Source: Pocillopora damicornis (taxonomy: Eukaryota). Taken from it: a stretch of DNA of 64,000 nucleotides. The stretch is taken from NCBI RefSeq assembly GCF_003704095.1, contig NW_020845872.1, positions 1 to 64,000 on the forward strand. The letters are read 5' to 3'. Below the pieces are notes generated by a model. That model saw nothing but the letters and a program-made list of their open reading frames with translations. It had not been told where the DNA came from and made no database searches. Numbering within the stretch: the stretch's first letter is position 1; every line of letters starts with the position of its first letter. Shown one piece after another: positions 42,654-64,000 of this stretch. Position numbers and translations under genes: made by a program.

Positions 42654-45600
42654 ATGATCAAAGGAGAATTTGCTTTGAAAGAAGAGCTCAGAGGATTAGA
42701 GGAGAAGATGTTCGAAAAAATGGACGCTGAGCATCGGGTATTCTATGGTATTTGATATTTACGATCGGTGGCTGCATGCCATCTCCTCTTATTCATTAAT
42801 TAAGCTGCAAATTGTAACATTTGCAGCTCATTGAATGGAGGAGAGATTTCGGTTACTCCCATATTATTCTAAAACAAAGCTTTAGTCCCTAAGGAAATCT
42901 TTTGTTTTCTTTATTCAAGAACTGTATTCAAGGGGTTGTGAACAATGAAATTAAGTTGCGATTACGAAGATATATACCTTTTTACTATCAACCGACAGTC
43001 TCACCTTTGCCTATCCTCTTTGAAGACTTTCACCCCTTCCCCCTCATTTTTGTGGAGTTTCTGCACTTTTGTTATACATGCATTCAGAGTAAATGTAGAA
43101 GGGGTTTTTGCTGACATGGTGCTGATTGCTTTCATGAAATCTACTTATTATGCGTCAGAATTATTAGGAAAAATCTGATTGGTTTAGAGTATTCAATCAA
43201 TATACAATGGCATGTGAAGTTGACATTATTTAACAATTATTCCATGAACCCTCATTGGGTATGAGGCGATAGATAGTTAACAAGGCCTATAGAGCCCAGT
43301 TGGCTATAATCATCTCATATCCAACAAGTGCAAGTGGAATAATTGTTTCACTAAAAATGCCCTAAAATATAGATAAATCTTCACAACATTATTTTTTAAT
43401 AACAAATAGAATGCTACAATATACAAAATCACTTTTGGTTTAACTTGTCTAATGAAGGTGCACAGTATAATGGCTCATAACCTATGATAGTTAAGCCAAT
43501 GAAAGCTCTTGAATTGCATTATCCAATGATCCAGCTTTTAATAAAACCCAATATCTGCAGCAGATATTGCATTTATCATGTAGAGTTTAAAGTCTGCATG
43601 GTTTTCAAGTCCCTTGTCCATGTAGTGTTCTCAAACTTTTGGAAACTCAGAGAAACCTTAAATGGCTGAATGTCACGCATAATGAAACAAATATTGAGAT
43701 CTGTTTTGGCATGATATCATGACTTATCAAACAACATGTCTGTTTTACCTCAGACCTCAGTTTTGATAAGTCATGATATCATGCCCAACCTCACTCAATA
43801 ATATTACTTAATATAAACTTGAGAATAAAATATGATATTTAATGAACTTAAAACCTAATTATAAAATCAAGTTATCTTTTGATAGAGCTTAAAACAGTCA
43901 CATAGAGGTAGCCTTTCTCTCGAAGCTTCACATCACCATCTCATAGAGTATGTGGAACTTTTAAAACAAGGTAATAAAAAACACTACTGTATATGGTTTA
44001 AGCCTTAGAGTTACAGGTGATCATGTAATTTGATGTCTGTGTGTGAGTAGTCTGGAAATGGACCATTGTTGGTTGGAGTGAATGATGTTCAACAACCTTA
44101 TATCATTCATGATCAGACTCAGGTGAGGAGTTGTTTGCCAGTTGAATTAAAGTTTTGGTCGGCTTCGAAGTGATGTTATTGGCTTTAACATTCAAGTAGT
44201 GTAAGTCAGCTGAGATAAGTCAGTTTATCTGAATTCTTCTTAACTCAATTTTACCAGCAAATTTCTGGGAGATTCAACAGATGTCAAAGCCCAGAAATTA
44301 CTACTTAATATCACCTTACACAGGAAAATCCTTATTTTTGTTTACTTTCAACACACTTAACTAAAACTGGGATCTTAAAACTAGTTTCATCTATGAGAAC
44401 CTCCTCAGGTGATACCAAAAAATTGAAGCAGACCCTAACTGCTACGCATTTCCTTGTAAGTTAGTTATGAGAATTTGGTGTCAAATCATGATAACAACTT
44501 ATTCCTGATAAGTTTGAGTATTCTTATTATCTGTTAATCACTTCAGGGAGTTAGAGGATCAAGATGAGGCCTCAGCTAGATTATCACACTTGCTATGGCT
44601 TGTAAGAGTTAATGATGGAATAATCATGGTCTAAACTTTTTTGCTATGTTTTATTGTTTACCAGTGTTTTACTTTATTTCAGCAACTTTTATGAACCTTG
44701 ACATAAAGGAGTGGGTAATTGAAAATGACCTTCTTGTGAATCGCTTAAAAGTGAGTATTTCTTATTGTGGTATATATTATCATTTAACAAAATTCGCTCA
44801 GCTCACTTTGCAGGGAGGTCCCAATTTTGTAAAAAGTGCTAGAGAATTGGTCTCTTGTGTATACAACTTTCAGGAAGGTTTGTAACACTATGTAATGGTT
44901 CAAACTTTGTTGGATAAAAGCTGTGTTTAATTAAACATTTGATTGGTCAGTGTTGCTTTTCATCTCATTGAATCAAAAAGGAGGATGGCAGTAAAGCATC
45001 AGTTCAGAATGTTCTGGAGAGTTTCACCTCTCTGTTGGAAAGAGTCCAAGGTGAGTATTTTCCAACTAGTCTATGTTTGTATTAGCTAAGATATGAGAGG
45101 TTTAAATTTATCAAGATCTGATTTATTACTGCAACAAAACATCACTTTTTTATTCTGTTGAAAGGTATTCCCATTTCATAAGATTTCCCAAGTTATTTCC
45201 CAATTATGGGCTTGGTGGGTTCATTTTTCCAAACACAGATTTATTCTTCATCTGTTACTGAGTCCTGGAGGATGCAATGGTCAAATGGTGAGGTGGACTC
45301 TGGAGCCATAGTGTAGATTGAAGCCCCAATTTACCTGCCTTGTGTTGTAAAAGACATTATTTTGAAGTACTGAAAATATCAGTGTCTCTCCACCCAAGAA
45401 TGAATTGCCCTATTATTGAGCCATGGTGAACATTTTGTGACTGATTTTCCCCTTGTTGTAGTAATTTGTACTACAACTGCATTTAATTACTAAAATCTGA
45501 AAGATGTCAATGGGCTATGCAACAATTTCCTTCTTACTGTAATCAATCATTCCCCATTCCTTCATACAGAAAAAAAGGCAAACCAGTCCAAATGCTGGCT

Positions 45601-48600
45601 GTTAATCACAGACTTATCCTACAACAAGTAAAACTATTTTTACCTTTTTATAGGCCTTCCACCAGATACGGCATTCATTTGCTATGAACAAGCAGTTGTG
45701 TATAATTTGTGCCACTTGCTGTTACAAGGCCAGATGAATGTGAGCATTGGAGGTATTCACAAAAGTGCTGCCATACTCCACCAAAGCATCTGTAGAGGTA
45801 TGTACGCATACCAGAATTTACAGTGTTTTACAAACTCAAAAATATATATTTATTATTCTACACCTGCAGAATTAACACCTTGTGAGATCAATTGAATTTC
45901 TGTCTCTTTTCAGGGGTTAAACAAGTTTGAATTTTATATGCTTATAACTTCAAAGCTAATTTTTTTCTTGATCCCATCCTTCCTCCATAATCTCTTCCCT
46001 CACTTTTGGTTGTACCAACCAGATTTGGTTCATATTTGTTTCTTCAACATGTGCAGCACTTGCAGCATTCAGAATAGAACCTTGTCACCAAGGGGAAGAG
46101 GACTTTAGCAACATACATCTTTTTGGTCCAGCAAACATTGAGTGTACTATAGACTCACTTCTACCAGCATTGTTTAAGGAATTGATCAAGAGATCTATTG
46201 GGTGTGGCCCCTTTGTGTTGAGTTGCTGCCTTTTAGCATTTCAGTGGCTAATTGATGAGAAAGGTGAGTATTCTTTGATAATCAGTTGGTCCATCTGTGC
46301 TTAGCTGTGCCTGTGTTATCTGTTTGTTTGCCTCTTTAACTTTGAGACTCAGTCAGTCAGTGTCTCTAACTATATATGTATGTCTACCTGTAGGTCTTTT
46401 TGCCTAATAGTTTGTTTGTCTGTCAGTCTGAAAACCTCTGCAACCATAACTTAAAAATTTTATCATTCAATGTTTTTTTTTTAAAATAAGATTAGGAAAA
46501 TCATTGTGAAAATTTTATGATACACCAAACAAATGCAGTGACAGTTTTAAGAGAAAGCTAATGGGTAAAAGAATTTCAAACTAGCATGAATCATTTCTCT
46601 GTCAGTGAGGGAAATTCAAGGCCTATTTGATACCTTTTTCCTTTAGTGAACCAGGCTGTAAAACTTCTTTACCTGATGCAAAGTCAGTTGAAACTTGTGG
46701 ATTCAAACATGAATTTTACTGATGAGGTTTGTAACAGCATTCAATTTGGCAAACATTTTATAAAAGCTCATGTTGATCACTTAGATGTACTCTGTTATGA
46801 ACTTAAATAAATTAATCATCATTTTATGTTGTATCTAAGGTATCTGAGATTCCTCCACATTGTTTACAGAATGAAATGACCAAAAGTAATAATGCCTATA
46901 ACCTTTACTTAATATGCAGTGGAGAATTAAAACTTCCTTTTTCCATTTTCTGTCAAAAGGGGAACCAAAATTTATACATAGGTACTGTTAAAGTATATAA
47001 GCATGAAAGAGGCAAAAACATTTTGTAGCATTTTAATAAAGTTACTATATACATATTTTGTCTAACAATTTTGAATCAAATCTTGTTTTGAAGCATATCT
47101 GGCCTATCTATGAATTGAAGTTGCTAAGAAACTAAAGTTATAAAAATTGTTTTTAAGTTTATCACTTTTTTTCTGCACACTTGGGATGACAACTTCACTA
47201 TTGCCTTTCCCTTGAACACCATAATCTCCTCTAATGCCACCAAATAAACTGAGATGATTTAAATGTTACAGAAGAAAAAATTGGGTAGAACAGACACTGT
47301 CTAGTTCTTACTTATTTTAAATTTTTTATTCATTTGATTGATCATTAGGTACCTGCTGATCGGCTTCCTGTATGCCTCTTCAGTTTAGAATACAGCTCAT
47401 CAATTTCTAATAGTGTAATCACTTCCTCTACCCACTCAACCAAAGACTTGACAGGCAAGATAGCATATTCAGATTCCTATAGTTGTTATTTTAGTTACTG
47501 TTTTGGCTAGTAATAATAATAATAGTGATAATTTAGGGCTTGTATCGTACAGATTAACATGTAAGTAAGATAAAATGCGTGTTACATAATAATCCCAGTG
47601 GCCATAAACGAAAACATGTCAAAAGTTGAGGTAGTGCTTTCTGGTTGTATTCCTCAACAGATATACAGAGTCTGTTGTCGGTGGTGACAAGTCTGTTGGC
47701 ATTTGCCCTCTTTGCAAATAAGGAATACGAAAAGGCACTGGAAATACTGAGGGGCAAAGAAAATACTCATGATGTTGGTTTTCATGATCTCTATCTCAAA
47801 GGTTTGGAGTCTTGGTGTATTGATTTAAAGTCAAAATGCAATTAATTAAAAAAAAGGAAGATGTGTTTTAGGCAGTTGAAAGACTCTTTTCCTTGTCTAT
47901 AACCGTCATATGATTGGAGAGTACAGCACAGGGGCTTAAGTACTTGTGATTTTGTTGTTATGTATGGTTGCAGGATACATTCTCTATGAACAAAATCAAG
48001 TGGACAGTGCACTGACATGCTTTCAGGAGTGTTTATCCATCTCACAAGAACAGAACAGAGCTGCGACTTTGAATATGCTAGGGTGCTGCTGTGCAGTCAA
48101 GGTAGATGTTTTAAGTAAAAGATCGAATTGACATGAAATATGCGCTCTTTAGTCTGTGAGATTTTGATTCCTCTTACCCTGATGTTGTCGTTTAACAATT
48201 CATTGTTATCTTTATATCTTTCCAAGGGTAAACATCACACTGCGGTAGCGAAGTTCAAGGATGCCCTGGAACACGATTTCCAGCAGCTGGAGGCTCTTTT
48301 TAACATTTCTCTTCAATATCAAAAGATGGACAAGTTTGAAGCGCAAATAAAAGCTCTTGAACTTTTAAAAGAGGTATGTTTAAAATTTAAAAACAGTTTT
48401 ACTAGTTGTGTTTCCTTATGCCAGAGCAGACATAACTGCACTGGAGAGTGAAGTGTTAAAACAGCTAGCTTGCGAGCTGCCCTAGCTCTTAGCGCTGCAA
48501 GACGTGTGTTTCTCCGCCTTACGGAGAGATCTGTGAAAAGCCGGGGAGAACTCGCTTTGCCGGAGATCTGCAAACCTCTCGCCGCCTGGCTGGCTTTGCT

Positions 48601-51600
48601 TCTTAAGGCCTCAAACTTTTCGACGAAGAAATGCTCGTTTAAATATAAAATCTTAACGGTAGTAAAATGAGATTTTCAACTCAGTCATTGGAACCAAATT
48701 GTATCTCAGCAAATCAGATGCAAAACTAAAAATAATCGCGACTTGGTCACTGGCGTTTCCTTGTGCCTTAAGAAGTTTTCTTGTTTACGCATGGAGTTTT
48801 CAATGGCCAGTGACAAAGTTAACCTTTGTTTTGATTTGGTTTGGTTTTCGACTCTTAATTGAAAACTGCTCCATCGTGGAAGGGAAATTTATAAGCGTAT
48901 TCTCTATCTATATTTGTTTGTATTTTTAGGTCATCAAGGCTAGACGGTGTGAGCCACAGACTTGCCAACACCTTGTAGTAAGTCCTCGAGATCACAGCAG
49001 AGAACACAGTAAAGGTAACCTAGGTAAGGGCTTGAGCACTTTCACTCCAAACATCTCAATGTCTATTCTTCTTACTGTCTTCTATGAGCCAACTAACTAA
49101 GCCGACTACTCTTAGGTTCATTAAATACACAATTCTTTTGAAATTTTGTTCCTCTAGATGTGGAATTATCCGTTCCTCCAAGATTTTCCTTGGGCAGTTC
49201 GAAGTCAAGTGCTCGCATGTCAAACGAATTGGTTACTTACATACTTGCGAAAAGATATTCAGAATTAGGAAGGTTTGAGGGATTTTCTAAATAATCTGAT
49301 TTTCCAAGAAGTCTGAAATTCATTTTTCGTTTATAGACGGCATTTATCGTCACAATATATCATTATTGTTATTAGATATAATTTTCCGTAGCTGGACGTC
49401 ATTTATCGTCACTAAATATTATTTACCTTCTCTACACGTTATTTGCCTTCGCTTGACATTATTAATGGTCATTACATGTTATTTCCCGTCAGTATACGTT
49501 GTTTATCATCGTTTGCCGCCACTAGACATTATTAATCGTCGGTACCCATCATTTTTCGTTTGTAGACATCATTTGCCGTCTCTAGACATTATTTACCCAC
49601 ACTACACGTTATTTGCCTTCGCTAAACATCATTTACTGTTACTTCATGTTATTGATCGCCGGTCAACGTCATTTTCCGTCTTTACATGTTACTTACCGTC
49701 GTTATACGTCTTTACCTTTACTAAGAATCATTTATCGACAGCACACATTTTCTGTCACTTGACATAATTCACAGTCATCAGACAACTTCTCGTCACTCGG
49801 CAAAATTTACCTTTACCTCAATCTGTCGATTTTACTTGGTTAATCAACACCAACGTACCCACAGTTCTCGTATGAAAGTAACTTCCTCGTGCGTTTTTTA
49901 TGGTCAACAGTATCTAAATACATACATATCTTTTGCTAGGTTCGAGGAAGCAGCGACGAACTTTCTGGAGTTGCTGGTCAATATTGTAGAAGTGCGCACC
50001 TCCAACTTTGTAAGAATGTCATAAATTTCTCGTTCTCACTGATATTTTTGTTTGAAATGCGTCAGTTTTAAACCAGCTTATTTATTCCGGTACATTTTCA
50101 GCCGCAAGCTCATAAAAATGGTATAATCTCGGTTCTCATCTCCTTATTTCGCAAATGTTTTCAGATTTAGGCTTTTTTTCATCTCGATGTAAGGCATGCC
50201 CAGTTCTTGTTAAAAATACGATCAACAATCATTGTAACACTTCTTCATTCTTAGCGGCCGAACGTCCAAAATCTTCCCAGTCCTACCGAGTTGTATAAAA
50301 ATTGTGCATTTGCGCTGTCTAAAGCTGGGAGACATGAAGACGCGGTGACAATTTGTGATAAAGTTCTTACTTCTATCGAGCATGGAGAACCTACTGAACA
50401 AGGTATGTAATTGGTGAATTGGGCTTGTGATAGGTTTTCTCTGCAAAAGAGGTTTACTGAGACAGACAAATATGACAAGTGTTACCTTTACAATTTTCAT
50501 TTCCAACTGCACCCATGTCAGTATTTGGAGATCTTTCGCCTACATAATTTCATCTTCGTCACTGCACTTTGAAAATAGCGAACTGGTCTTCCGCCGACCA
50601 GTTGTGGCTAGAGAAAATGTTTTGTTTATTTGAAGTGACTCATATTTTCGATTTATGATAGCTAGCAGCTTTAAGCCCGAACTGTGTACTTTGTAAAAAC
50701 TTTCTTTGTCTACTCCCCTCTAATTCCAGTGTCTGCTGCTAGGAGCTATCAGAGGCACTGCCAGCCTGTACTCCACCCCAACCCCACCCCTGAATGAAAG
50801 TTTGTCTGTCACAGGTTACTCCAGGAATTGACTCTACTTTGTTTTTGCCTTCAAAGGTCACAACGATGAAATAAGAGTCAACGATAAAGCTCCTAAGAAA
50901 AGGCTGCGATCAGATGACGGGGAAGATTATTTGAGCACCTTCAATAGCGAAACGGTGTCTGACAACATACAAATGCTTATGTTGAAATCAGAGTCATTGG
51001 TTCATCTTCAAAAACCACTAGAGGCCTTGCAGTCTCTCAACAGGTATTGTGAATTCTTCTTTAAACGTATGCGACGTAATTATATTTCGTCTTGCTTCGA
51101 TGCAGCGTACTTGGAGAAAACAGTCAAGTTTTAGTGACCGTGAACTACATTAAGTAGAAGAACTGAAGGGAGACATCTACCGTGAGTGAAAGTGATCCTC
51201 GCAGTAATGTGCACTACTTGGGCAGTAGTGAAAGTAAGGCCTGAAAAAAATTCAGGCCCGTACGGGATTTGAACCCATGACCTCTGCGATACCGGTGCAG
51301 CGCTCTACCAACTGAGCTAACAAGCCAACTGGGAGCTGGTCATTATGTTGGTTCCAAATAAACCCGTGAAGTGATGAATAAACAGTTAAGAATATATGAA
51401 AGTCACTATTTTCACTACTGCCCAAGTAGTGCACATTATTGTGAGGATCACTTTCACTCACGTCTTTATCCGCAGTTTAAATATACGACTTTCATATATT
51501 CTTAACTGTTGAGACATCTACCGTTAAATCGTTGTATAGGCCTCCAGGCCCATTCTTTAGGCATTCTTGTAATCAAAACCACATACGGTATGACAGATTA

Positions 51601-54272
51601 TCATGATAATGCGCCGAAGAACGTCATGAACCAATTAGAAGAACCTTTGGTAACAAGCGTTGGATGTTTGCGAATAGTTTCTGATGTTATTAATTGCTGA
51701 TAAAACAAAAATTATCCTGACGGGTTAGACAGGGTCCACAAGCATTGTATTCTTAGGAGCAATCACAGAACTCTGCCATAGAAAGAAAAGCTTCTCATCT
51801 AACTTGTGCAATACACTTGCCAAAATTATCTTAGGGTACTGGTCGCACTGGAAGATGTCCAGTTAGTAAAAAATCAAGAAAGAATCCAAGGCCACAAGGA
51901 TAATGATGGACAACAGAGGAAAAGGAGAAAGCTCGACTGCGGTAAGTTGATAAGACTTGTTGCAAAAATACGGGACGCGGTAAGTGCCAACTGAACTGAA
52001 GTCGTTCATGTACCTCACGTTTGACGCGCAGTTGAATGTGAAGTAATCTAAGAACCTCTGTTGGTCGACAGAGTGATAGTTGTTGAGTCTGTTGAATGTA
52101 TATGGTCCTAGTTAAGTTTTCAGCGAAACCTTTTCTGTTAATCCTTTGAATTTTTTTTCTTTTATCTCTTAAAAGGAGACAATGTTTCGTGTGAGGAGCA
52201 AAGCGAAACTGACAACTCAAGAAGGCCTGCTAGAGTAAAGGTGAGTATACAATATTTGTTTAGCAAGGTGAGTCAAACTTTATTCGTAGAAGGTAACTAT
52301 TTGGCGTCATCTAGGTTAACACTGACTTTGCCTCCCTGGACAACTGCAAACGGCCAAATAATGGTTTGTTAAAGGTGCCTTTCAGAAATTCGAATACACA
52401 TTAGCACAGGCCTGCATGCTTGACACGCGCATGAAAAACTCGCGGAAAGCAAAGTTAATTAGAATGTTTGAGTTCGCTTATTGTCCGCCTATTCTAGTTT
52501 TTTCTCGTTACTTTTGATTGCTTTTTTTTGCATCATTTCTCATGAAATATATTGTACGTGTCGTGGTAATATGCCAGATCATGAAAGAATTTAAATGTTT
52601 GTGTCAGATATGTAGTGCCACTATTTGGACCGTGCGATCGACCTACTGCCTGCCTGGCTGTCTTTATGTTACTGTGTGTGTTTTCTTTCCTTTCAGGTCC
52701 AAGCGTACAATCAGAAGGCTTCTATTCTAGATGAACTGGGTCAGACCCATGATGCCTTGCATCAGTTGCATCTCAGTTTGGAGTGTTTAGCAGGTATTTT
52801 GTATAACCAGCATCAGGTGTGATGTTAAGTGTTTACTTTTGGCCTTTTCTTTAACGGTAGTGAGAATATGTGGTAAACAGAGGTATTGATGGAGTGAACA
52901 ATAATGGCTTCACAAATGGCGCCAGCTCTGACCAGAGTCTCACGAGCACCGTACTTCCCCATATCGAACCGGATAAACTTTCAGTATATTAAAAGAAAAG
53001 TTCAGTGCATATTACAGAGGTGGAGAGGGAAAGTCTGCTATACTGATGAGGCCTGGTAAAGCTAAAACGGTTCTCCGTGGCTGTTAAAATCTTGATTGAT
53101 TTTGATTTTGATCTCGTTCTTGGGCTCCTGAGTCTCGAACATGAACGCCTTATTGCGTGTTTTGTGGTCGCAGCTAGCCAACCCCAATAAGAGCGCTATT
53201 CGATTGAGTGTCGGCATGGTACAGAGAGCATAGTAACTTCCTTTCCTTTGAAAGGAAAGGAAAATTTGAACGCAGACTGAATTCGTTTAATCGACCGCGG
53301 GAAATTGCAAGAAACCAAGTCGCGACTTTTCCTTATTAGTCACAGAGCGCAGTAAAGGAAAAGCAATACAATCACGGATTTCTTTCAAAACTCAATTGGA
53401 AAATGCTCTAACTTTCCCACACTACAACTTTCCTTATTCTTTCAATTCGTTAGAACATCCTGAGACAGTTTATAAGCATACGCGGTTGCTCCTGAAGCTT
53501 GGTTCAAAGAAAGAAGCAGCACACAACTGGCTTCAATTCCGAGGTGTCCTTCTTCACTCGCACAAAGGGGACCTGGATTCCCTTTGGAAAGTACTCCAGT
53601 AAGCTTTTCACTCCTGAATCCTTTGATTATTTTATCCAGCAAGGGTACGGAATTGAAGAGTGAGTCCGTTGCGTAGTGTAGTGATTGTTTGAGAGGAAGA
53701 GATGGGACAGAGGTTTTTCCTTTAAACGAATTGTCGATAATACTGGTTTTCATGTGTTGGGCAAATCATAGACGATCGAGGATTTCACTGGTTCACGACC
53801 GTCTCAGATTTGTCCGACAAATGAAAACTCCGAAACCGTAGAGATCCCCGATTGTCTGGGATGGTCGGCGACAAATCGGGAACGTTACTATTTTTCCGAC
53901 GCGTCCCAGATTTCTGTGATGATCGGCGATCACTTCAAACTTCAATTTTTGCCGTTGGGGACGTTTTAGCTCGCAACCAGTCCTCTAGTTGCCTAGCTCT
54001 AGTACCCCCGTGTGACAAATAAAATTTAATATCCAAAGAATCTTGGACAAACATCTGACCATCTCTTGAAATATCAGCAAAATCTGGGTCGGTCGAGAAA
54101 CAGTGATAAATGAATGACAAAAAATTTTTTGTTTTTCAACAGTTCATCAACAACAAAGTTTCTGGAAAGTGACGTCAGCAACGAGCAAGTCCGAGAACTA
54201 GACGAGTTGATCTTGAATTGGTTGAGCGAGAATAAAGAGCAAAATGTCTTTTATCCACATGCCAGGGTTTAA
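42654..54272 (+). CDS. FANCG: Fanconi anemia group G-like TPR protein, about 19-20 exons (start exon tentative; alternative ATG near 44691)
   Basis: LDIKEWVIENDLLVNRLK and LERVQGLPP..YEQAVVYN resemble the FANCG N-terminus. TPR-like exons at 47974-48100, 48226-48373, 50254-50402, 50857-51042, 52697-52793 and 53454-53598. Last exon 54143-54272. Confidence 0.72.
43226..43545. mobile_element. Hairpin-type non-autonomous repeat in intron
   Basis: Inverted arms AACAATTATTCCA..TGGGTATGAG..ATAGTTAAC and GTTGGCTAT..CTCATATCCAA..TGGAATAATTGTT. Confidence 0.6.
49320..49810. repeat. Highly degenerate short-period tandem repeat (GACATCATTTACCGTC-like)
   Basis: Recurrent ACAT/ACGT-YATTT-CCGTC variants. 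This explains the low-quality ORF 49366-49767. Confidence 0.6.
51184..51510 (-). mobile_element. tRNA-containing short retro-element with 14-bp target-site duplication
   Basis: GAGACATCTACCGT at 51170-51183 and 51511-51524; internal tRNA-like unit and two pairs of inverted repeats. Confidence 0.85.
51254..51326 (-). tRNA. tRNA-like (pseudo-Thr, GGT) unit inside the repeat
   Basis: A box TAGCTCAGTTGG, B box GGTTCAAATCC, pairing acceptor stem GGCTTGT/ACGGGCC, loop CCGGTAT (C instead of U33), T7 terminator just downstream. Confidence 0.55.
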
Positions 54273-54719
54273 AACTCTATTCGAGCGAATGTTTTCATAG
54301 ATTTAAGAAACGTTCAGTTACGTCGTTAACAAAGATGCCATCTTCTAGCGTTGAAGATTATACCAAATTTGATGGATTGCTGTCAGGGCTACAGTGCATT
54401 TTGAAACAAAGATAAAGTTTAAGCCCGTTCTACAAGTCCTTCTGTAGGATTTGCACGTCTCAGTGGTTCATAAAGAATGAGAGACAGTGTTTCCGTTTAC
54501 CACGAAGAGTAGTTATGCTGTTGAGTGTTTGTTATCGTTTCTGTTGTGATAACTCAAATTATTTATTAGTACAAAGGCGATACAAGACCCAATAAAAATC
54601 ATAACTTCAAACTTGTGTTCTGCCGAGGGTTTTAACAATCATGATATAAGAAACATTATCAAAGTCTTTCTTTGTATAGGAATTTTGATTACTTGGCAAA
54701 TTTTACGTATCATAAACAG

Positions 54720-54960
54720 CCCAATCAGAATTCATGAAAGATCGCCTCTTTCTCGGAATCCTAAATTCCGAGAATGTGATTGAGTTTCCTAGAAACGTGA
54801 GTAACGCAGGAGCCCGTTACTTTGGTAATGGGCCCCTGACTGACGTCAATGTTTAATATGCCTCGATAACCAATCAGCTTGCAGATTAATCGCTTCACAG
54901 TAAGGTCATTCTGTCATGTAACTTGTTTTCCGCTCTAGAGTGAAAACTTTCTCAGAAATC
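54720..54960 (+). promoter_or_regulatory. TENT paralog A upstream region: 4 GAS (TTC-N3-GAA) sites, CRE, CCAAT boxes
   Basis: TTCTCGGAA 54750, TTCCGAGAA 54766, TTCCTAGAA 54786, TTCTCAGAA 54949; TGACGTCA 54841; CCAATCAG 54721 and 54870. Confidence 0.65.
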
Positions 54961-55096
54961 TGTCGTGTGTTTCACGCAGTTAGTAGTTAACATTTGGTTT
55001 GGTTGAAAGTCAACAACTAAAGGAATTAGGCAGGCTGCCGCATTAAGCTCTAATTTCGTCACTGCATGGTTTACGATATTAGCAGGTTGAACGTTC

Positions 55097-57587
55097 ATGG
55101 CTAGTTTCAACTTCAGCTCGAGAGGTGATCATTATCATCAACTAAGCGCACAAATTCAGCAAAAGTTTCAGGATAATCGTCAAACGAGTGAAGTATTTGA
55201 TCGGAAGAATCGATGGAGAAAGGAAATTGAAGACTTAGTGAAGACCCTTTACCCGTCATGTCGACTCGTTCTTTCCGGCTCGTCCGCAAACGGGTTTGGC
55301 AGCATTCATAGTGATATCGACCTGGTTTTGTGCTTTGAAGGGGCAGCAGTGACTGGACCTTCCATGTTGAGGAGAATAGAGTCGCTTTTTGCGAGTAACC
55401 GTCGTCGTTTTCAAACAGAGGTAGTACCACACCTTATGTGAGTTGCATAATTTTTATAAATAATACGAGCAATCAGGAAAATATCCGCTCGTATAATGCA
55501 TAAAACCATGAGATAAGGGACTTGTTATTCCCCTGCCATTTCATTTTATAATATTTTGACTTCCAGTTTTTTTAAATACATACGGTCTAATCTTGTGCAC
55601 TGTATGGATCACATAACGCGTGTGTGAAAGACGAAGGCAACACAAACGAAACCATTAAGAGTTCTTGATGACTTATAAAAGAAACTGTTGCCCCTAATAG
55701 TTCCATGCACGAAATTTCGAGCCTAAAACACGGAAACAAATAAAAGATTGAATCGTTTAGCCGGGGGCCATTTTGTTACTCCGCTTTCAGTCCGCATTTT
55801 TGCCCCGTGCCATCGCATATTTTGCGGGTTCTATGGTCCTTATTTGGTGAAATGGTGTAACTGTCGAAGAGTATGTAATAGTATTTGAGCACAGCTTGAA
55901 TGTCCGCGACTAAGACAATCAGATTCCTACGTAAGATATGCATGACAAACTAGTACGTCGTGTCTTTTCCCGCGTTTTGAAACACTTTAGATTATGATTT
56001 AATTTTTTGTTTGTGGGTTTCCTCTATAAAGCATCAAAAATGACTCAGGGGGAGATCAAAGAAAAAAACTGGTTCTTCTCTTTCGTCATATTGATCAGAA
56101 TTTTTAATTCGAAGCTTCCTCAACGTGTCTTTCACTTCGGTTTCTACCGATCCCGAGGTTAGATTGTGCTTTAATCTTTAACCTAATTGGCATACGCAAG
56201 AGAATATCAAAAGTTGATGTTCTCTCGGCAAACGATATAATTTTTATTAAAACCAATTTCAAGATGGTGTCAGCGCCGAGTGAGAGATATTTTTGATTGA
56301 AAAAAAAAAACTAGACAAGTAAACATTTGATATGCAGCAGTAAATTTTTTTAAAGTCAACTTTGAATTTTGAACAATCCCCAGGTGATTCCAAACGCACG
56401 AGTTCCTATCATCAAGCTCAAAGATAGGGAGAAATCAATTGAAACTGATATCAGTGTGGAAAATTGGACCAGTGTGAGAAACGCCTTCGTTCTAAAATGT
56501 TACTCCGAGTGTGACACAAGGGTGAGACCGCTGGTCATGGTCATCAAACTGTGGGCTCAACGTGCAGGAATCACCGATGCAAAACTCAAAAGACTTGCAG
56601 GTACGAAATCTGCCGATTGTTAAAAAAGTGGCGGATTTGAGGTTGAATAAAGGGGGTTAATTTCTAGAGAAAATTTTGGTGCTGCGTGGGGGGATCTTTC
56701 AAGACAATTTGGTGTCATCAACCGAATTGACATTATAAACTGGCCACCGTAAAGAGTTTCTTTTGCTAACGCTTGCAACGTCAGCTATATTAAACTCTTA
56801 ACGGTGGTCAATTTACATTATCAACGCAGTTGATAAAACCACATGATCTGATGAAAGGTTGACTGGTTTGACTCGTTTACAAGCTCAATAATACAAATAA
56901 AAAAAAAGTCCCTTCATTTTAGTTTAGTTATGTGTAGCTTTTCACATATCACGATGCGAGTAACATATGACTGACTCTTACAAGACAGGCAGACATGTAA
57001 AGCTTGTAACTTAGACCAAAACGCGTAAGAGAGAGAAAAATGAAAATTTACAGAAACTAAACAGGAAAAAAGTATAAACTGGTCTACCTTTGAGCTGCTA
57101 GGATCTCCTTTTATATGTCGATTCTTCTTAATATTTAGGTTTCGCCGTGGTTCTTTTGGTAATCCATTATCTTCAAGCAGGATGCTCCCCTGCTGTTGTG
57201 CCTGCCTTGCAACAAATGTTCCCTGCGGTCTTCCAAGCTTCTAACAGTGTGATCATTGACAAGCTTACCTCAGATATTCCTGCTGAAATACAAGCCTTCA
57301 GTTCCGATAACAAGCAGAGTCTTGGTGAGCTTCTGGTTGGCTTCTTTCAGTACTTCTCCACCTTTAACTGGAGTAGAACCATGTCGATTCGTTCTGGAAA
57401 TACCCGACCGACTTCGACGTACGACAAGATATGGCGGGGACCTTACATTCGCCTAGAAGATCCCTCAGATGGGGGTAACGTCACCAGATCCGTGTATGAT
57501 TCCTACGAGTTCTCACGCATAAAGAGTGCGTTCAGTAGCGCTCTCTCGAAGTTGAGAAGCAATCCGTCTTTGGAAGAAATCTTGTAG
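55097..57587 (+). CDS. Cid1/GLD-2-family terminal nucleotidyltransferase, paralog A, 329 aa (exons 55097-55420, 56384-56600, 57139-57587)
   Basis: SGSSANGFGSIHSDIDL, ARVPIIKL, third Asp in ETDISV, D.RVRPLV..IKLWAQ, PAP-associated domain SLGELLVGFFQYF..IRLEDP. Confidence 0.92.
56648..56842. mobile_element. Decayed copy of the palindromic Penelope-derived element
   Basis: Homologous to 31523-31769 (TAAAGGGGTTAA..TGGTGCT; CCACCGTAAAGAG..CTCTTAACGGTGG); hammerhead core partly deleted. Confidence 0.6.
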
Positions 57588-58137
57588 GAATCCGAAGAAG
57601 AAACTGACGTAGATCCCTACATTGTTCCAACTAATTTCAATTTTTGCCTTACACAGTAAAAACTCGCTAAAAAACCCTAATTTTGCTATTAGAAACTAAA
57701 TAAGTTCTTCACTAGAGCCATTTTCGTGTTCAGAAAACTAGAGAAAAATAAGGTTACTGAAACTGCTTAGAGTTACAATGTGAAAACTTTAGATGTCATT
57801 TACAGGAATAATATGGGAGAATGACATTGTGAATTGAATGGAAGAATGGAAAAAGAAAAGAAAAGAGAAGAAAAAACGATAGAGAAATGGTTGAAGCTGC
57901 TGGGGCTCGAACTATAGATCTTCGGAATTAACAGGAGTACGCACTCACTATCTATTGTGCTAGGTACGCAAAGCGTACATAAGTATTGTATCAAAATACA
58001 TTTGATACACATTTTATACATGGATCTTTTCTATGAATTTCCCACCCTGTCCCTAGCCCGTGAATTGACCAGTATACAAACTCTGTTCTAACCAAGTCCT
58101 CCTTTTGACAAATTTTGGCATCGACGAAAGCTGTTTC

Positions 58138-58274
58138 AATAACCTGTTCATTAACCTGTTCATTAAACTGTTCATTAACTTGTTCATTAACCTGTTCATT
58201 AACCTGTTCATTAACCTGTTCATTAACCTGTTCATTAACCTGTTCATTAACCTGTTCATTAACCTTTTCATTAA
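58138..58274. repeat. 12-bp tandem repeat (TTAACCTGTTCA) x about 11
   Basis: Direct inspection; no spacers. Confidence 0.95.
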
Positions 58275-59299
58275 ACATCTACCTCATTAAAAATGAGGTG
58301 CATGTTACACCTCATTTCTTTCTTACCGCAATACTCTACAACCATACAACAATAGGTACATGCAGTCATAGATTGCCTTTTATTTTAAAAGCAGCACTTC
58401 TACCACTTACAAGGCCTTCGAGACACTGTTTCTGAGTAAACTGAGTTAAGCTCATTCTTTTTCTTGACTTGATGTTACTGTTCTGAGTTCAAGTTCGTAA
58501 TTAACTTTATATAAAGCTAGAAGCTGTTTCGTCGTTAACAGAAGTCTGGAGACCTTCAAAATGTAAACTTTGATACCAATTTTTGCATCAACAAATAAAT
58601 TATCTTTGTTTTCATCCATACCCATATTGTTGATATCGTTAATGGATTAATAAATTTTCATCAGCGTGTGGTAATCATTCTAAGTTTGCAATCAACGTGG
58701 TCGGTTGAAATAAACAAAGCAGTTCATGTATTATGTAAACTATCACAGACAGACCCTAGCCGTTAAGCTACAGCGTATTCCCCGACGGGGAAACAGTGCT
58801 AACAAATCATGAAAAAATTTAGGTGTAATCATAAAGTTCTGGAAGAACTTAACAAAAGAAAAACCGAACTAAGTTGTTGTTTCATTTGGTCGTTCTTTTG
58901 AAAATCTCATTGATCATTCAGTTTTAATATAAAAAAGAATAAAGTAAACTCGGCATTAATGTTGGAGGAATGTGAGGACTCCATTTGAAAATTTACGTAA
59001 AGAAAATACGTAGTATTTGGTATATTGGTTTAATTAAATAAACTATCTGAATAACATTTTAAACAAAACACCCTCAAAAAAAGGTTACATAGGTCTGCAA
59101 TGCATACTTGTGTTTTATACAGCTGTCACTCCCTTGGTTAATCGCACAAAGACTTGAATTATCGGCTATTTTTTTTTTATTACGTGTATCAAAAGCTTTT
59201 ACTGGCATAAAAGTAACGTTTGATCTACTAAGTTTTGAAAGACAACTTTAAATACTTAAACCATTCATCCCCTTCACTTTAGGATGCGATCGTTTTAGC

Positions 59300-60827
59300 T
59301 TAAAAAATGTCTTGTAGAGATGCCTTCTGTTCCAGCTGAGTTGAGGCAGATTGAAAGGCATTCTTTATGCGTGTGAATTCGCTCGAGTTATACACGCCCC
59401 TTGTGACATTTCCTTCGTCTGTCGGATCTTCCAGCTTAATATAGGGCCCACTCCAAACTCTTCCATACCGTGAAGTTGGCTGAGTATTTCCCATTCGAAC
59501 AGATATGGTTTTTTTCCAATCAAAAGAGGAGTAGTACTTGAAAAACTCGATCAGCAACTCACCAACGTTTTGCGTGTTCTTGGATTTGTGTGACTTTACT
59601 TGGGGAGGAGCGCTGCCGGTGAGTTTTGATATGACATCATTTTCTGTTGATCGGAAGAGCTCTGGGAAATCTTTTTGGAGCGAGGGGAGGACAGGGGGAG
59701 AACATCCGGCTTGTAGGTAATTAATGACAAGTAGCACAACTGCAAAACCTGTGGACCAAAAAATTGAGCTATAGTGAGATATTAAACCTTTACCATGGAA
59801 TAATTAAATCAAGCACAAGTTTTAATGAAAAAATATTGCAAAATACCAGGGATTTAATAGTCTTCATCCTGACTTCCACAATAAAAGGTACATTTCCTAC
59901 CAAATTAGGATGCAGCCTCACCCTCCCCCCTGCCCTCTTCTTGGTATTAGAAGGGCACTTACGAAATTGGTAAGAAACGTAGTCGGTGAAGAAAGAAATA
60001 AACTTATTACGAGGAAAATTATAAAGCCGTCCGTGGTTTCTTAGAGGTAATTCGATAAATTTTCCAACAATGAATACAAGTTCATCTATATCGGTGTAAA
60101 AAGCATAACGAATAGAAAAATATCTTTCTCAGGCATTACCAGCAAGTCGGTGTAATCTTGCGTTGGTAATCTCAGCCTTCTGAGCCCACAGTCTGATAAT
60201 GACAACCAGAGGTTTCACTCTTGGATCGCACTCGGAGTAACATTTCAAAAGGAAAGCGTTGCGAACATTTGCCCAGTTGTTGACGGAGATGTCAGATTCA
60301 AAAGACTTTTCCTTGTCTTTGAGTTTTATGATTGGAATTCTAGCGTCGGTGATCACCTGCAAAAGTTATGTTAGCCTTCGTAAATGTTAAAACACTTCGT
60401 TACACATAGCTTCACTTTAATTAATATTTAATTAAAGTTTGCATAATTAATCTTTTTCAAAAAGGCTTTCTCAGCGAGACAGTGATATTGTCTCAATAGA
60501 TTGAAAAGACCTCACCCTTGTTTCAAAGCGTCTGGGTGTCCTGGTGAAAAGCGATTCTATTCTTCTTAACATGTAAGTTTCTGCATCTTCCCTGCTTTTA
60601 GCAGTCAAAATGAGATCGATGTCGCTATCAGTGCTTCCGAATCCGTTGGCAGAAGACCCGCACAACACAAGGCGACAGCTAGGATAAAGCTCTTGGATAA
60701 TAAGCTCCATTTCCCGCCGCCATGAGTCCTTTTGATCATAAATTTTTGGCGTTTGTTGGTTTGCTGAAAATTTCTCTTGAATCTGACAGCTCAATTGAGC
60801 GTCTCTATCAGTGTTTTCATTAGCCAT
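59300..60827 (-). CDS. Cid1/GLD-2-family terminal nucleotidyltransferase, paralog B, 325 aa (exons 60827-60516, 60356-60140, 59748-59300)
   Basis: CGSSANGFGSTDSDIDL, ARIPIIKL, ESDISV, IKLEDP. Intron positions and exon 2/3 sizes (217, 449) are identical to paralog A. Confidence 0.92.
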
Positions 60828-60914
60828 AATTATCGACCCAAATCTGAGTGAAAATGAATGAAAAATAAGCCCTCGGGTGACCACAAAGTTGTTGCTTACT
60901 AGAGAATTTGTGTT

Positions 60915-61015
60915 TACTTCGACGAAGTTTCAAACGTTTTCTAAGAAAACGCAATATCATCCGTAAACAATAAAATTCCCAGAAATGCCGCGCATTGTTA
61001 ATTGTGATTGGTCCA
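60915..61015 (-). promoter_or_regulatory. TENT paralog B upstream region: 3 GAS (TTC-N3-GAA) sites and a CCAAT box
   Basis: TTCGACGAA 60918, TTCTAAGAA 60939, TTCCCAGAA 60976; ATTGG near 61007. Confidence 0.6.
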
Positions 61016-61346
61016 TTACTATGTAAATTCTGACATCCTGTTTACAGAGTGTTCTAGAGTTTAATTCATTACTCGAACTCACCCGCTGAAAATGCTTAAT
61101 AAATTCAGGTTATTGTTCTTTACCCGCTCTGACATTAGCAAAATAATTAAAATAATTTAGGTAACGATTAGGAATATCAATTTTAAAAGTATTCAGTCAA
61201 TGAGTCTGAAACAGTACGAGGAAATATGACATCCTTTTTGGTGGTTTTAACGTGCTGTGGCTGTCACCATATCCTCAATTGCGAACAGTTTTACATGGAA
61301 GAATAACACTAGACATTCTAAACAACTCTATCCGTCATCAGAGATA

Positions 61347-61660
61347 CAGTGGAATCTGTATTAAGCGGTCGCTTGTTAAAGTCCCGAAATTTTTCCTCTC
61401 TAAATACGTCAATTTTCACTTTAATCTCTCGAGTCAAATTAGTATTCCATGTTTATCTCCCGAAATCGATGCTAGCACTGTGAATTCAAGTATCCTCAAT
61501 ACTTTGTAGGTCATCTTTCTACTATGGACTGTTAGGACAAATGTGACACACGAACATCACACAAGCTATTTGCGGATCAACTTGTATTGAGTCCGTAAAC
61601 CTGTAATAAACGGTCACCTGGCCATTCCCTTAGGGAAACCGCTTAGTACAGGTTCGACTG
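61347..61660. mobile_element. Tc1/mariner-pogo-type MITE with TA target-site duplication
   Basis: TA|CAGTGGAATCTGTATTAAGCGG ... CCGCTTAGTACAGGTTCGACTG|TA. Confidence 0.8.
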
Positions 61661-62464
61661 TAACTTTCATCGAATATTTAAATCTTACTCGGATAAAATG
61701 TTTATTACTGAGAATTAGAAAATCAGTTTCGAACTCTTCATTCTTAATTAACGCTGCGAAATTTGAAAGAACGAAAGTTGAATCAAGACCTTCACTTTGA
61801 TTATCGTTTGGTTTGCTGTCTGGTGTTTGATAAACGACTTTTTTTTTACAAACCTATTAACTATGATATTTAAGATTAACAAAAGTCAAATTGTGCGCTG
61901 CACCACAATGAATTGCCCAGACTTTATTCGTCTCCCTTATGTAATCATAGGAACTTACTCAAGTTACTTCAGTGAGGTCAGACATACCAAATACAAGTGA
62001 AGAGGCACTGGCCCGCTTCAACTAAACACGTTTACTCAGCATTTACAAAAAGATACTAAAGTAAGACGGAAAAATTAATTATAGAGATACAACGAGACAA
62101 AACTTACCAAATGATGAGGGAAATACTGGAAGGACGACACAATCGGGATTTAGAGAGAAGGAAAAAAACACAAACTGCTAGAAGGGGCGTGAAACATGAA
62201 GTATATGGGGCGGCGGGATTTACATAAGGCAAAACAGTAGTGAAAAAACGAAAAGAGTAAGCGTAAATTAATGGGTGCTAGATAAATAACATATGTGATT
62301 ATATTATATAATATATAGCAACAAGACTGTTGCTATATATTACAAAATTTCAATTGAATTAATCATAATAATATGAATAGCAATTATGTTTCGAGTCGAA
62401 ATTGATTTCGTTGTGATTGAGTAGTTTATCTCAAAGTGTACTTATTTATCTGATGAGATGTAAA

Positions 62465-64000
62465 TCAAAGAATACTTTCCAAAGACGAATTTCTATTCAA
62501 ATTGTTTGACGCAGTCTTGAAAGACTGTTTAATGCGCCTGGCTTCATACTCGTCAAACACGGCTCTGGTTACATTTCCTCCGTCCGTGGGGTCCTCGATT
62601 CTGATTTTAGGCCCCCGCCAAACCTTAGAATGCATTTTGGTGGGTTCCGTGTTTCCCGTACGAACAGAAATGGTTTCTGCCCACTGGAAAGCAGAATAAT
62701 ACCGGAAAAACGCCATTAACAATTCTCCAAGACTCTTCTCGTTTTTTGACTTGTACGTCTGGATTTGAAGTGGAATTTCATCGGTTAGTTGGTGAATTAC
62801 TTCGTTTTTTGACGTGTCTTTGATAAGTTCTGGGAAGTCTTTATGCAGTACAGGCAGGACTGGGGGAGCACAACCGGCTTGTAGGAAGTGGATGACCATG
62901 AGAACGATAGCAAAACCTAGACATGATGGAAAGTGGCAAGCAGCTAAATTTATTAAAGCATCACAGTTACATGCAGTAAGCATAACTACACATTCGAAGC
63001 GGGGGAATCCCAGAAGCGGCACAGGTTTATACGAGAGATCTTAATAGTCCACATGTCTCCTCACACATAGGCCCCCAATGCTAATAAACTTGTATCAATC
63101 AGGTTATAAGTTCCAACTGCTGTCTTTATAAAAAACAAATAACAATTAAAAAAGTCTCCAAGTTTCCGTGATAAAGGTTAATTCAAGTTCTTGTCAGGAG
63201 TCGCGGGTAGCGTTAGAGTATAGTTTGAATTACTCCAAGATACAACACAATACCCCCTTCGCTTACAGTCTTCTCATCCTTCTCTTCCGACCTTCAACAA
63301 TGTTAAATGCTTCTAGATACATTACCTGGAAGCCTCTTAAACTTGGCTCCGATAATTTGAGCCTTTTTCGCCCATAGTTTGATCACAATTGTCAACGGCT
63401 TCACTCTTAAGTCACACTCAGAGTAGCATTTTAATAGGAAGGCGTTCGTCAAGCTGCTCGAATTCTCCAAAGTGATGTCCGTTTCAAACGAGTTCTCTTT
63501 ATCCTTGAGGATAATTATGGGGTCTTTGGCATTTGAAACAACCTGAAAGTAGTTACAATTACTCTCTGTTAACTACGCCTTAGTTCTGTGGCCGTTTTAT
63601 AGATGTGCCATGTTCAATTATGTAGAATTACACTTTCTCGTTCTTTCAACGCTCTTTTACCCTTCTCTCCCCCCTCTCAAGGCAAAAATTGTAGATTGCA
63701 TTTTGTTTACTATATACAAACAGGAGCAGCTGGTTCAAACTGCTTCTTTTTTCTAATTGGATCACCAGGAGATCTACAATCTTCCGCCCAAATATCGTTC
63801 GATCCAAACAGCCACCATGAATGAGTATTTCTGGATTATACCAGAACGTGATATATAAAAAACAAACAGTGGATGCGGATATTTATGCGTGGCAATCATC
63901 TCAAGCTAAAAGAGATACCAAATTAAATTATCAATTGGTATAACAAACACTGATACCTCTGTTTCAAAGCGGCGAGGCTTGCGACTGAAAAGCGATTCGA
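62465..64000 (-). CDS. Cid1/GLD-2-family terminal nucleotidyltransferase, paralog C, 5'-partial (exons >64000-63957, 63542-63326, 62916-62465)
   Basis: ESLFSRKPRRFETE|VVSNAKDPIIILKDKENSFETDITLE..IKLWAKK..RLPG|FAIVLMVIHFLQ..IRIEDPTDGGNV; same intron positions as A and B. Confidence 0.88.

Follow-up and report, generated by a model that had tools for sequence, protein, structure and literature searches.

The window, the 64,000-nt stretch of Pocillopora damicornis DNA analyzed here, ends in a cluster of three-exon genes: A and B, which are complete, and C, whose first exon runs past the window end (Table 1). Their products are 329 (A), 325 (B), and 334 (C) amino acids (aa) long, with pairwise identities of 57 to 62%; a fourth paralog, D, is on a different contig. 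The original prediction was of at least three paralogous Cid1/GLD-2-type enzymes with identical intron positions, and both the gene models and the RNA joints agree with it. All introns are GT-AG, the first in phase 0 and the second in phase 1, at identical aligned positions, and exon 2 is 217 bp long in all three genes. Transcripts of A, B, and C were assembled from RNA runs of four studies, none with a known immune treatment. Spliced joints were seen for all six introns: those of 963, 409, and 414 bp in 4/4 runs, and those of 538, 391, and 159 bp in 3/4. A, B, and C are spliced, expressed genes of the GLD-2/TENT2 type.

Table 1. Exons and promoter elements of genes A, B, and C (positions in the window except where the contig is given)
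Feature	Position	Strand	Remarks
Gene A, three GAS sites	54750-58, 54766-74, 54786-94		Align with GAS in 5/5 other A-type promoters
Gene A, CCAAT box	54870..54874	+	Conserved among A-type promoters
Gene A, fourth GAS site	54949..54957		Close to likely transcription start
Gene A, exon 1	55097..55420	+	ATG, GS motif, first two catalytic Asp; profile match, RNA contigs
Gene A, exon 2	56384..56600	+	Third catalytic Asp; profile match, RNA contigs
Gene A, exon 3	57139..57587	+	PAP-associated domain, nucleotide recognition loop, stop; RNA contigs
Gene B, exon 3	59300..59748	-	Profile match, RNA contigs
Gene B, exon 2	60140..60356	-	Profile match, RNA contigs
Gene B, exon 1	60516..60827	-	Profile match, RNA contigs
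Gene B, two GAS sites	60939-47, 60976-84		Looser site at 60918
Gene B, CCAAT box	61007..61011	-	Conserved in B- and C-type promoters
Gene C, exon 3	62465..62916	-	Profile match, RNA contigs
Gene C, exon 2	63326..63542	-	Profile match, RNA contigs
Gene C, exon 1, 3' part	63957..64000	-	ATG at G000:C2507:64292, 292 bases past window end
Gene C, GAS sites	64447 and 64610 (contig, past window end)		Motif scan

Pfam models matched on the eight scanned exons were the palm domain (PF22600), the PAP-associated domain (PF03828), and related nucleotidyltransferase (NTase) models, and nothing else. Neither zinc knuckles nor a duplicated NTase domain was found in the gene models or Pfam scan of A-C, and A and B consist, as predicted, of the catalytic and PAP-associated domains without a long N terminus. 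An in-frame stop immediately 5' of the ATG of A, together with contiguous RNA contigs, rules out extra 5' coding exons. Two longer models in the databases, RMX42922.1 (664 aa; C fused to B) and PFX34543.1 (971 aa; the upstream TPR gene fused to A), probably result from mis-joining; no RNA joint among those listed supports either fusion. Of 309 read differences, 40 were listed, and 14 of these are coding (3 silent in A; 7 silent and 4 replacement in C).

Rapid evolution of the effector type is not supported. Pairwise dN/dS between paralogs is about 0.16 to 0.20 (LWL85; dS is near-saturated, and NG86 was saturated), and A is 83% identical between Pocillopora and Oculina versus 77% for the TENT2 core. 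By these pairwise values, purifying selection acts on the proteins, and an arms-race signal is lacking.

Relation to TENT2 and the nucleotide pocket

The canonical TENT2 of this coral is a separate gene (G000:C4228) with the SSY motif and many introns, and it groups with the TENT2 proteins of Oculina and Actinia. A-C are therefore not its orthologs, and the refutation stated with the original prediction, that they are simply the only TENT2 orthologs of the species, falls. Neither intron position of A-C is common to canonical TENT2, and they are only 32 to 35% identical to it. In quick tree runs with SH-aLRT supports, A-D-type proteins formed a clade (98 to 99) separate from the canonical cnidarian TENT2 clade (96), and a split with support 100 placed them on the TENT2 side relative to TUT4/7; the TUT4/7 rows were assigned by length and histidine loop, and TUT1, MTPAP, and TENT4, which had been proposed for the comparison, were absent. 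A sister placement of the clade to cnidarian TENT2 survives the AU test (p-AU, 0.22). For the Stylophora ortholog, the predicted structure (pLDDT, 89) has mouse GLD-2 as its top Foldseek match (TM, 0.85), and the best PDB sequence match is also GLD-2. XP_022783244.1 is the Stylophora ortholog of A. A viral origin was rejected: the best BFVD fold match had an E value of 2e-5 at 12% identity, versus 4e-26 for GLD-2.

These results assign A-D to a distinct cnidarian clade of N-terminally truncated GLD-2/TENT2 paralogs. The clade may have arisen as a TENT2 retrocopy that lost the N-terminal part and acquired a GAS promoter. The family expansion, of which A-C are the neighboring members, is small (four genes) and old, with no recent burst.

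The GS motif, the DxD, and the third Asp are retained in A, B, C, and D, and an alignment of 23 sequences shows no variation at the GS motif or at any of the three Asp. Relative to rat GLD-2, R443 is kept, K312 is kept (R in B), and D322 is kept only in A; N321 is changed to T or I, S330 to G, Y331 to F, and E434 to D, which bears out the predicted divergence of the substrate pocket. The present allele of C also carries V264 to D, and the GTLSSY-type motif of TENT2 is of the KRLAGF/HKLSGF type in the A-D clade. Rat GLD-2 requires N321, S330, and E434 to be active, which leaves both the activity of A-D and their choice of nucleotide uncertain. A-D might be catalytically weak or dead proteins that bind and cover RNA 3' ends, as the changes at 330, 321, and, in the C allele, 264, all of them positions of importance in rat GLD-2, would allow, but the invariant catalytic residues make this very improbable. 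The nucleotide recognition loop has the length of that in TENT2, and the pocket histidine is absent; the analogy first drawn with uridylation by TUT4/7 and CDE-1 is not supported. The residues point to A-rich or mixed tails, away from CDE-1-like uridylation, and ATP-preferring or mixed tailing by A-D is reasonably probable.

GAS sites upstream of the genes

We scanned the 500 bp 5' of each ATG for the strict GAS motif TTCYNRGAA. The background was 29 sites in 241 kb, or 0.06 expected per 500 bp. The predicted clusters of STAT-type sites upstream of A and B were recovered (four and two sites), and C and D have two each, giving 10 sites versus 0.24 expected in the four promoters. The joint Poisson P of 1e-13 is too strong, because the A-C promoters have common ancestry; the D promoter has no blastn match to them. 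The reversed motif occurred 0 times in the four promoters, which also lacked any ISRE or kB site, and no GAS was found within 500 bp of the canonical TENT2 ATG. RNA contigs of two studies start at 54904 and 54908, a weak hint as to the start of A transcription; another extends further 5'.

Across 26 related loci in other corals, there were 65 GAS sites in 11.8 kb of upstream sequence versus 8 in 76.8 kb of flanks. All 24 loci with at least 300 bp of upstream sequence, representing about 12 distinct promoters, were GAS positive. In A-, B-, and C-type promoters, GAS sites persist at aligned positions with the CCAAT box while the flanks diverge. By these alignments, the GAS sites are a conserved promoter footprint across corals.

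In this genome, GAS clusters also lie 5' of a ZNFX1 gene, a JAK-type kinase gene (12 sites over 6.1 kb), and the STAT gene (7 sites over 10 kb). The STAT locus was found weakly through PF02864 and an SH2 exon; the PF02865 profile found no STAT exon. Near IRF, STING, and GBP anchors, enrichment was modest (11/23 with a GAS within 3 kb; 0.30 versus 0.12 per kb), and among 18 loci with paired GAS sites, 3 were beside recognizable immune genes and 8 had no Pfam match. That STAT is what binds the GAS sites seems fairly probable.

Induction in Nematostella and possible roles

The Nematostella member of the clade, XP_001634038, is by tree the ortholog of D. In published supplements, gene 5513780 ("GLD2") responds to 2'3'-cGAMP with log2 fold changes (log2FC) of 5.6 in polyps and 4.7 in embryos, and NVE21606 ("GLD2") responds to poly(I:C) with 5.2 and 4.4 from near-zero counts; thus, two independent data sets give a rise of about 20- to 50-fold. 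Interpolation from two accession/GeneID pairs predicted 5513759 for XP_001634038 (observed, 5513780), and by this inferred link the clade member is very probably the induced "GLD2." No GLD2 match was found in nine supplementary files of PMC11251625 or in four of PMC13319465, among which the data tables seemingly were not included, and full-text searches by accession gave only chance number matches. By analogy with this ortholog, immune induction of A-C is quite likely.

Knockdown of nvSTAT reduced STAT mRNA 3.7-fold and lowered only eight genes, including SOCS2 and not 5513780; Margolis et al. reported no significant loss of induction. The power of this experiment was low, since STING knockdown, too, lowered only one gene, STING-like. 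The genes could be targets of STAT, or of another binder of TTC-N3-GAA, with a somatic role outside defense (differentiation or stress), and immune bystanders only. BCL6-type repressors bind a GAS-like site. The knockdown result fits such a role, as does the somatic expression of NvGLD2-like, which RT-PCR shows at 10 to 40 days in untreated animals and which is not maternal (PMC10284499). We consider it improbable given the size of the induction from near zero in both data sets and the GAS clusters at ZNFX1, JAK, and STAT.

The enzymes might instead be immune-induced stabilizers of host mRNAs that lengthen the poly(A) tails of immune transcripts, a role played by TENT5 in worms and mammals (PMC9668313). 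Their fold and pocket are nearest the poly(A) polymerase GLD-2, there is no arms-race signal, and Nematostella co-induces TENT5C (log2FC, 4.0) and TENT4B (2.9). Yet an induced TENT5 is already available for that role, and the loss of the N terminus and the long-kept paralogs with differing pockets suggest more than bulk polyadenylation; we rate this reading as unlikely. Co-induction of AGO2, Dicer, and RdRP raises a further alternative, that A-D belong to the induced RNA interference (RNAi) arm and tail small RNAs (viral siRNAs or miRNAs) or cleaved targets, possibly with MUT-2-like recruitment of RdRP. Mammalian GLD-2 tails miRNAs, the GLD-2 paralog NPOL-1 uses nucleotides broadly, and MUT-2 adds UG tails. 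However, secondary siRNAs were not detected in Nematostella, and the TENT searches over this contig (103 kb) showed no linkage to RNAi genes, which leaves this alternative decidedly unlikely.

The reading that we prefer, and hold tentatively, is that A-D are truncated GLD-2/TENT2 paralogs that would be switched on by STAT in an antiviral response and would tail RNA 3' ends. They are probably an immune-induced, STAT-driven variant of TENT2 whose RNA target we infer. Coral STAT, acting through the GAS promoters, is likely to switch on the genes; the tails that the proteins are predicted to place on RNA 3' ends are short and A-rich or mixed; and their most likely effect would be to flag viral RNA for decay or to spoil its replication ends. 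Whether viral RNA is the main target is close to an even call, leaning slightly against. Weighing against the preferred reading are the STAT knockdown, the modest GAS enrichment at other immune genes, the low dN/dS, the changed pocket residues, and the transcripts seen in coral and Nematostella material with no known immune stimulus. The immune-effector reading first proposed is partly supported, by the separate TENT2, the conserved GAS footprint, and the very probable induction of the Nematostella member; its uridylation analogy and rapid evolution are not supported. A bolder version, which we regard as doubtful, would have a dedicated antiviral tailing family derived from GLD-2, with paralogs differing in nucleotide, a JAK-STAT/GAS circuit that predates interferons, and STAT as the missing driver of NF-kB-independent antiviral genes in sea anemones and corals.

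In the account of Margolis et al., the driver of the Nematostella antiviral genes is open (NF-kB is dispensable, and partial knockdowns of IRF and STAT gave negative results), and functional tests of a cnidarian antiviral effector were still lacking. The A promoter, compact and with four conserved GAS sites, is amenable to reporter work in Nematostella, for which transgenics exist. Single-domain enzymes of about 330 residues would be an easy first cnidarian effector to study, with a bearing on coral disease.

Comparison with known systems

GLD-2 is an activator of germline and neuronal mRNAs. A-D share with the cytoplasmic poly(A) polymerase TENT2/GLD-2 (PAPD4) the two-domain core, the catalytic Asp residues, and the length of the histidine-free loop; TENT2 is about 500 aa long with an N-terminal extension, whereas A-C have 325 to 334 aa and none. 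They differ also in introns, in the GAS promoter, and, for the Nematostella member, in not being maternal. One earlier sighting of the clade exists, under the description "a second GLD2 homolog": in Table 1 of PMC10284499 (Rouhana et al. 2023), the primer ends match the codons for the two termini of XP_001634038.3, so NvGLD2-like is the ortholog of D. The available parts of that paper give RT-PCR timing only, with no immune role, promoter, phylogeny, or coral expansion.

The C. elegans enzymes NPOL-1 and MUT-2/RDE-3 are likewise tailing paralogs confined to one lineage and altered in the nucleotides they use, as the pocket residues suggest for A-D, and presumably arose independently; we know of no STAT-type promoter for them. 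TENT5/FAM46 enzymes are tied to innate immunity, and TENT5C is cGAMP induced in Nematostella, but they belong to another TENT family and target host mRNAs for secreted effectors. TUT4/7 and CDE-1, of the same superfamily, tail viral RNA and lead to its decay; A-C lack their zinc knuckles, second NTase domain, and pocket histidine, and a TUT4/7-type gene exists separately in this coral (at C290). If the preferred reading is true, the recruitment of a GLD-2 paralog clade to immunity would put this enzyme to a new use, parallel to antiviral uridylation and different in its chemistry.

Gene cluster, family, and phylogeny

Three three-exon genes lie at the window end, A on the plus strand and B and C on the minus, with A and B tail to tail and the start of C 292 bases beyond the window. 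Their proteins (329, 325, and 334 amino acids [aa], respectively) show 57 to 62% pairwise identity, and RNA contigs, drawn from four studies, show splice joints at all six introns. As originally predicted, there are at least three paralogs with the same intron positions, and a fourth, D, on another contig shares both introns. The enzymes are also as minimal as proposed: a Pfam scan of A to C gave the palm and PAP-associated domains and nothing else. Rodent GLD-2 was the best solved relative by sequence (E = 7e-47) and the best fold match (TM 0.85, using a pLDDT-89 model of a Stylophora ortholog, 91% identical). The named proteins that share their 90% clusters come from Pocillopora damicornis, P. 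meandrina, and P. verrucosa, which places the window in a Pocillopora coral.

Immediately 5′ of A and on its strand lies a TPR-repeat gene of several exons, which adjoins A in Stylophora too. One RNA contig jumps 96 bp of a 12-bp tandem repeat that lies in the gap where A and B converge at their 3′ ends. Other RNA contigs extend from the last exon of C to the B promoter; thus, the 3′ UTR of C is long or reads through.

Coordinates of the features discussed (window positions or contigs of the coral assembly)
Feature	Location	Remarks
TPR-repeat gene	window about 45500-54590	
Tandem 12-bp repeat	window 58138-58270	
RNA contigs, C to B promoter	window 60977-62465	
Variant codon of gene C	window 63522-63524	Asp at family Val/Ile position
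MITE-like insertion	C2507:64470-64600	short; inverted-repeat ends
Gene D	C2974:243548-246657	333 aa; same two introns and 217-bp exon 2 as A-C
Other palm-domain ORFs	C2784:124122-128091; C3056:4434-4679	long open frames, about 450-500 aa
JAK-like locus	C14:346500-368800	12 strict GAS sites in 6.1 kb around gene start
STAT-like gene	C1014:60001-80000	minus strand; weak PF02864 matches plus SH2; 7 GAS sites in 10 kb on upstream side
ZNFX1-domain gene	C2:711000-714200	five GAS sites at or before first long ORF

With PF22600, PF03828, and the Nematostella protein as queries, at least four members of this type turned up in the genome (A to D) and no fifth, these counts being lower bounds. The separate canonical TENT2 that the original prediction said to look for is present on contig C4228 (about 500 aa, many introns, matching named proteins). 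From their motifs, we take genes on C290, C901, and C1038 to be of the TUT4/7, TENT4, and TUT1/MTPAP types, respectively. Two of the other palm-domain nucleotidyltransferase ORFs face each other.

Trees were built with FastTree on 171 rows and IQ-TREE (quick trees) on 44 and 24 of those rows. Genes A to D, Nematostella XP_001634038.3, Actinia XP_031561471.1, and one unnamed protein formed one clade (SH-aLRT 98 to 99). In this comparison, which had been proposed with the prediction, the clade stood apart from both canonical cnidarian TENT2 (support 96) and, by a wide distance, TUT4/7-type proteins (support 100); its placement as sister to cnidarian TENT2 was not rejected (p-AU = 0.22). Neither of the two A-D introns is at a position found in canonical TENT2, so a retrocopy that later gained introns would be the simplest reading. 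A long-branched Sanderia jellyfish protein of 338 aa may belong to the clade. The anemone genes are orthologs of D (support 99), and A, B, and C fall inside a stony-coral clade (support 100). A tail-to-tail pair of A- and B-type genes occurs on two further coral contigs. Because A-type proteins occur in Stylophora, Oculina, and Porites, the sequences indicate that the triplication is old; the predicted tandem expansion holds as a triplicate cluster. Fast, effector-type evolution was not found, as dN/dS between the paralogs points to apparently purifying selection.

GAS sites in promoters and across the genome

Of 23 strict GAS sites (TTCYNRGAA, STAT type) in 123 kb, 10 fall within the four 500-bp stretches preceding the ATGs, where 0.24 is expected. 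Clustering upstream of A and B is thus borne out, and the C and D promoters also carry sites; because these two lay outside the DNA behind the prediction, they confirm it independently. The D promoter contains TTCCGGGAA twice as a perfect copy, 33 and 56 bp 5′ of the ATG. The 3 kb upstream of canonical TENT2 holds one GAS site, at −2004.

We compared 26 related loci from coral metagenomes. A GAS site was present in all 24 loci with ≥300 bp upstream (∼12 distinct promoters after collapse), and over the 26 loci there were 65 sites in 11.8 kb of upstream DNA versus 8 in 76.8 kb of flanks; the reversed motif occurred once. A-type promoters keep four GAS sites and a CCAAT box in order, and blastn aligned just 38 bp of the window A promoter with the others. 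B- and C-type promoters keep a GAS pair and a CCAAT box. A MITE-like insertion, missing from the other aligned B- and C-type promoters, splits the two sites of C.

Genome-wide, close GAS pairs numbered 309, versus 172 for the reversed pattern. At the first 18 pair loci listed (tandem repeat on C279 skipped, close neighbors merged, seven longest ORFs each), 10 had a Pfam match and 8 had none. Three of the 10 were of immune type: ZNFX1, a JAK-type FERM, and a GT4 glycosyltransferase of the kind found on anthozoan NLRs. Upstream of 23 IRF/STING/GBP anchors, GAS sites were 2.4-fold enriched (11 of 23 positive), a count in which one site appears twice, two GBP contigs are excluded, and the STING anchors do not mark the starts of genes.

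At the JAK-like locus, the exon order is FERM, SH2, kinase-like, long low-complexity, and tyrosine kinase; the kinase-like domain has HG instead of the catalytic HRD, and the tyrosine kinase is intact, with a YY pair. If these exons are one gene, they would make up a full JAK layout. A JAK with a pseudokinase is described, in the accessible text of one paper, as unique to bilaterians (PMC3670263). The GAS sites upstream of the STAT-like gene would make a self-amplifying loop possible.

Active site and predicted chemistry

All 23 aligned sequences retain the GS motif and each of the three Asp residues, and the A-D proteins are basic (pI 8.6 to 9.3). Their recognition loop has the GLD-2 length and, unlike that of the TUT4/7-type rows, contains no histidine. 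This histidine serves U selection. This does not support the TUT4/7 parallel drawn in the prediction: classical uridylase activity is unlikely, and ATP-preferring or mixed tailing is our best guess. Of the residues at which mutation reduces rat GLD-2 activity (PMC7470959, accessible sections), K312 and R443 are kept, Y331 is F, S330 is G, N321 is T or I, E434 is D, and G326-T327 is replaced by basic pairs (KR, HR, or HK). According to the consulted parts of a WIREs review, nucleotide specificity is hard to predict, and NPOL-1, a GLD-2 paralog, is broad in nucleotide use (PMC7988573). Gene C has Asp at the position of rat V264, near the adenine, where the near-identical protein P0004 has Val; this is either a rare allele or an assembly error.

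Probable immune induction and proposed role

In the accessible Nematostella data, 2′3′-cGAMP induced GeneID 5513780, annotated as "poly(A) RNA polymerase GLD2," with a log2FC of 5.6 in polyps and of 4.7 in embryos (Margolis et al. 2021, PMC8713801). Poly(I:C) induced NVE21606 (GLD2) from a starting level of 13 to 22 counts, with a log2FC of 5.2 after 24 h and of 4.4 after 48 h (Lewandowska et al. 2021, PMC8476169). GeneID 5513780 is probably XP_001634038, of the minimal clade: two accession/GeneID pairs in the same supplements predict 5513759, 21 off. NVE21606 would be a minimal-clade gene by shared name and behavior only. The available text of Rouhana et al. (2023, PMC10284499) separates maternal NvGLD2 from "NvGLD2-like," which is present at 10 and 40 days and whose primers (Table 1) match the ends of XP_001634038.3. 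Immune induction, predicted for the coral cluster, thus probably occurs in the Nematostella member, through this identifier link; that gene is the ortholog of D and not of A to C. Since cGAMP also induces TENT5C (log2FC 4.0) and TENT4B (2.9) in Nematostella (PMC8713801, Dataset S1A), RNA tailing as a whole goes up in this response. ZNFX1 genes of Nematostella are strongly induced by cGAMP as well.

Against STAT dependence, knockdown of nvSTAT reduced the expression of 8 genes, STAT (log2FC 1.9) and SOCS2 among them, and 5513780 is not in this set in the tables available. The fall of SOCS2 means that STAT acts as an activator in Nematostella. STING knockdown lowered one gene alone in the same work, so these knockdown tests are weak.

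These genes carry the database annotation GLD2-like, and one earlier paper gave the anemone member a name. Among the papers listed on GLD2/TENT2 in cnidarian or antiviral settings, mostly outside subscription journals, none describes the GAS promoter, the expansion in corals, or a role in immunity. The A-C feature is real, a new variant of a known family.

We propose that sensing of dsRNA or cGAMP would activate STAT; the genome carries a STAT-like and a JAK-like gene, and the DNA upstream of each is rich in GAS sites. STAT dimers at the GAS array would then raise transcription of the tailing genes. Past transcription, every step, including enzyme activity and RNA target, is conjectural: short basic enzymes without an N-terminal part might tail accessible 3′ ends. 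As targets, we would rank small RNAs third, stabilization of host mRNA second, and viral RNA first, the last because of the precedent of CDE-1 and TUT4/7 (PMC10537345, in the portion available).
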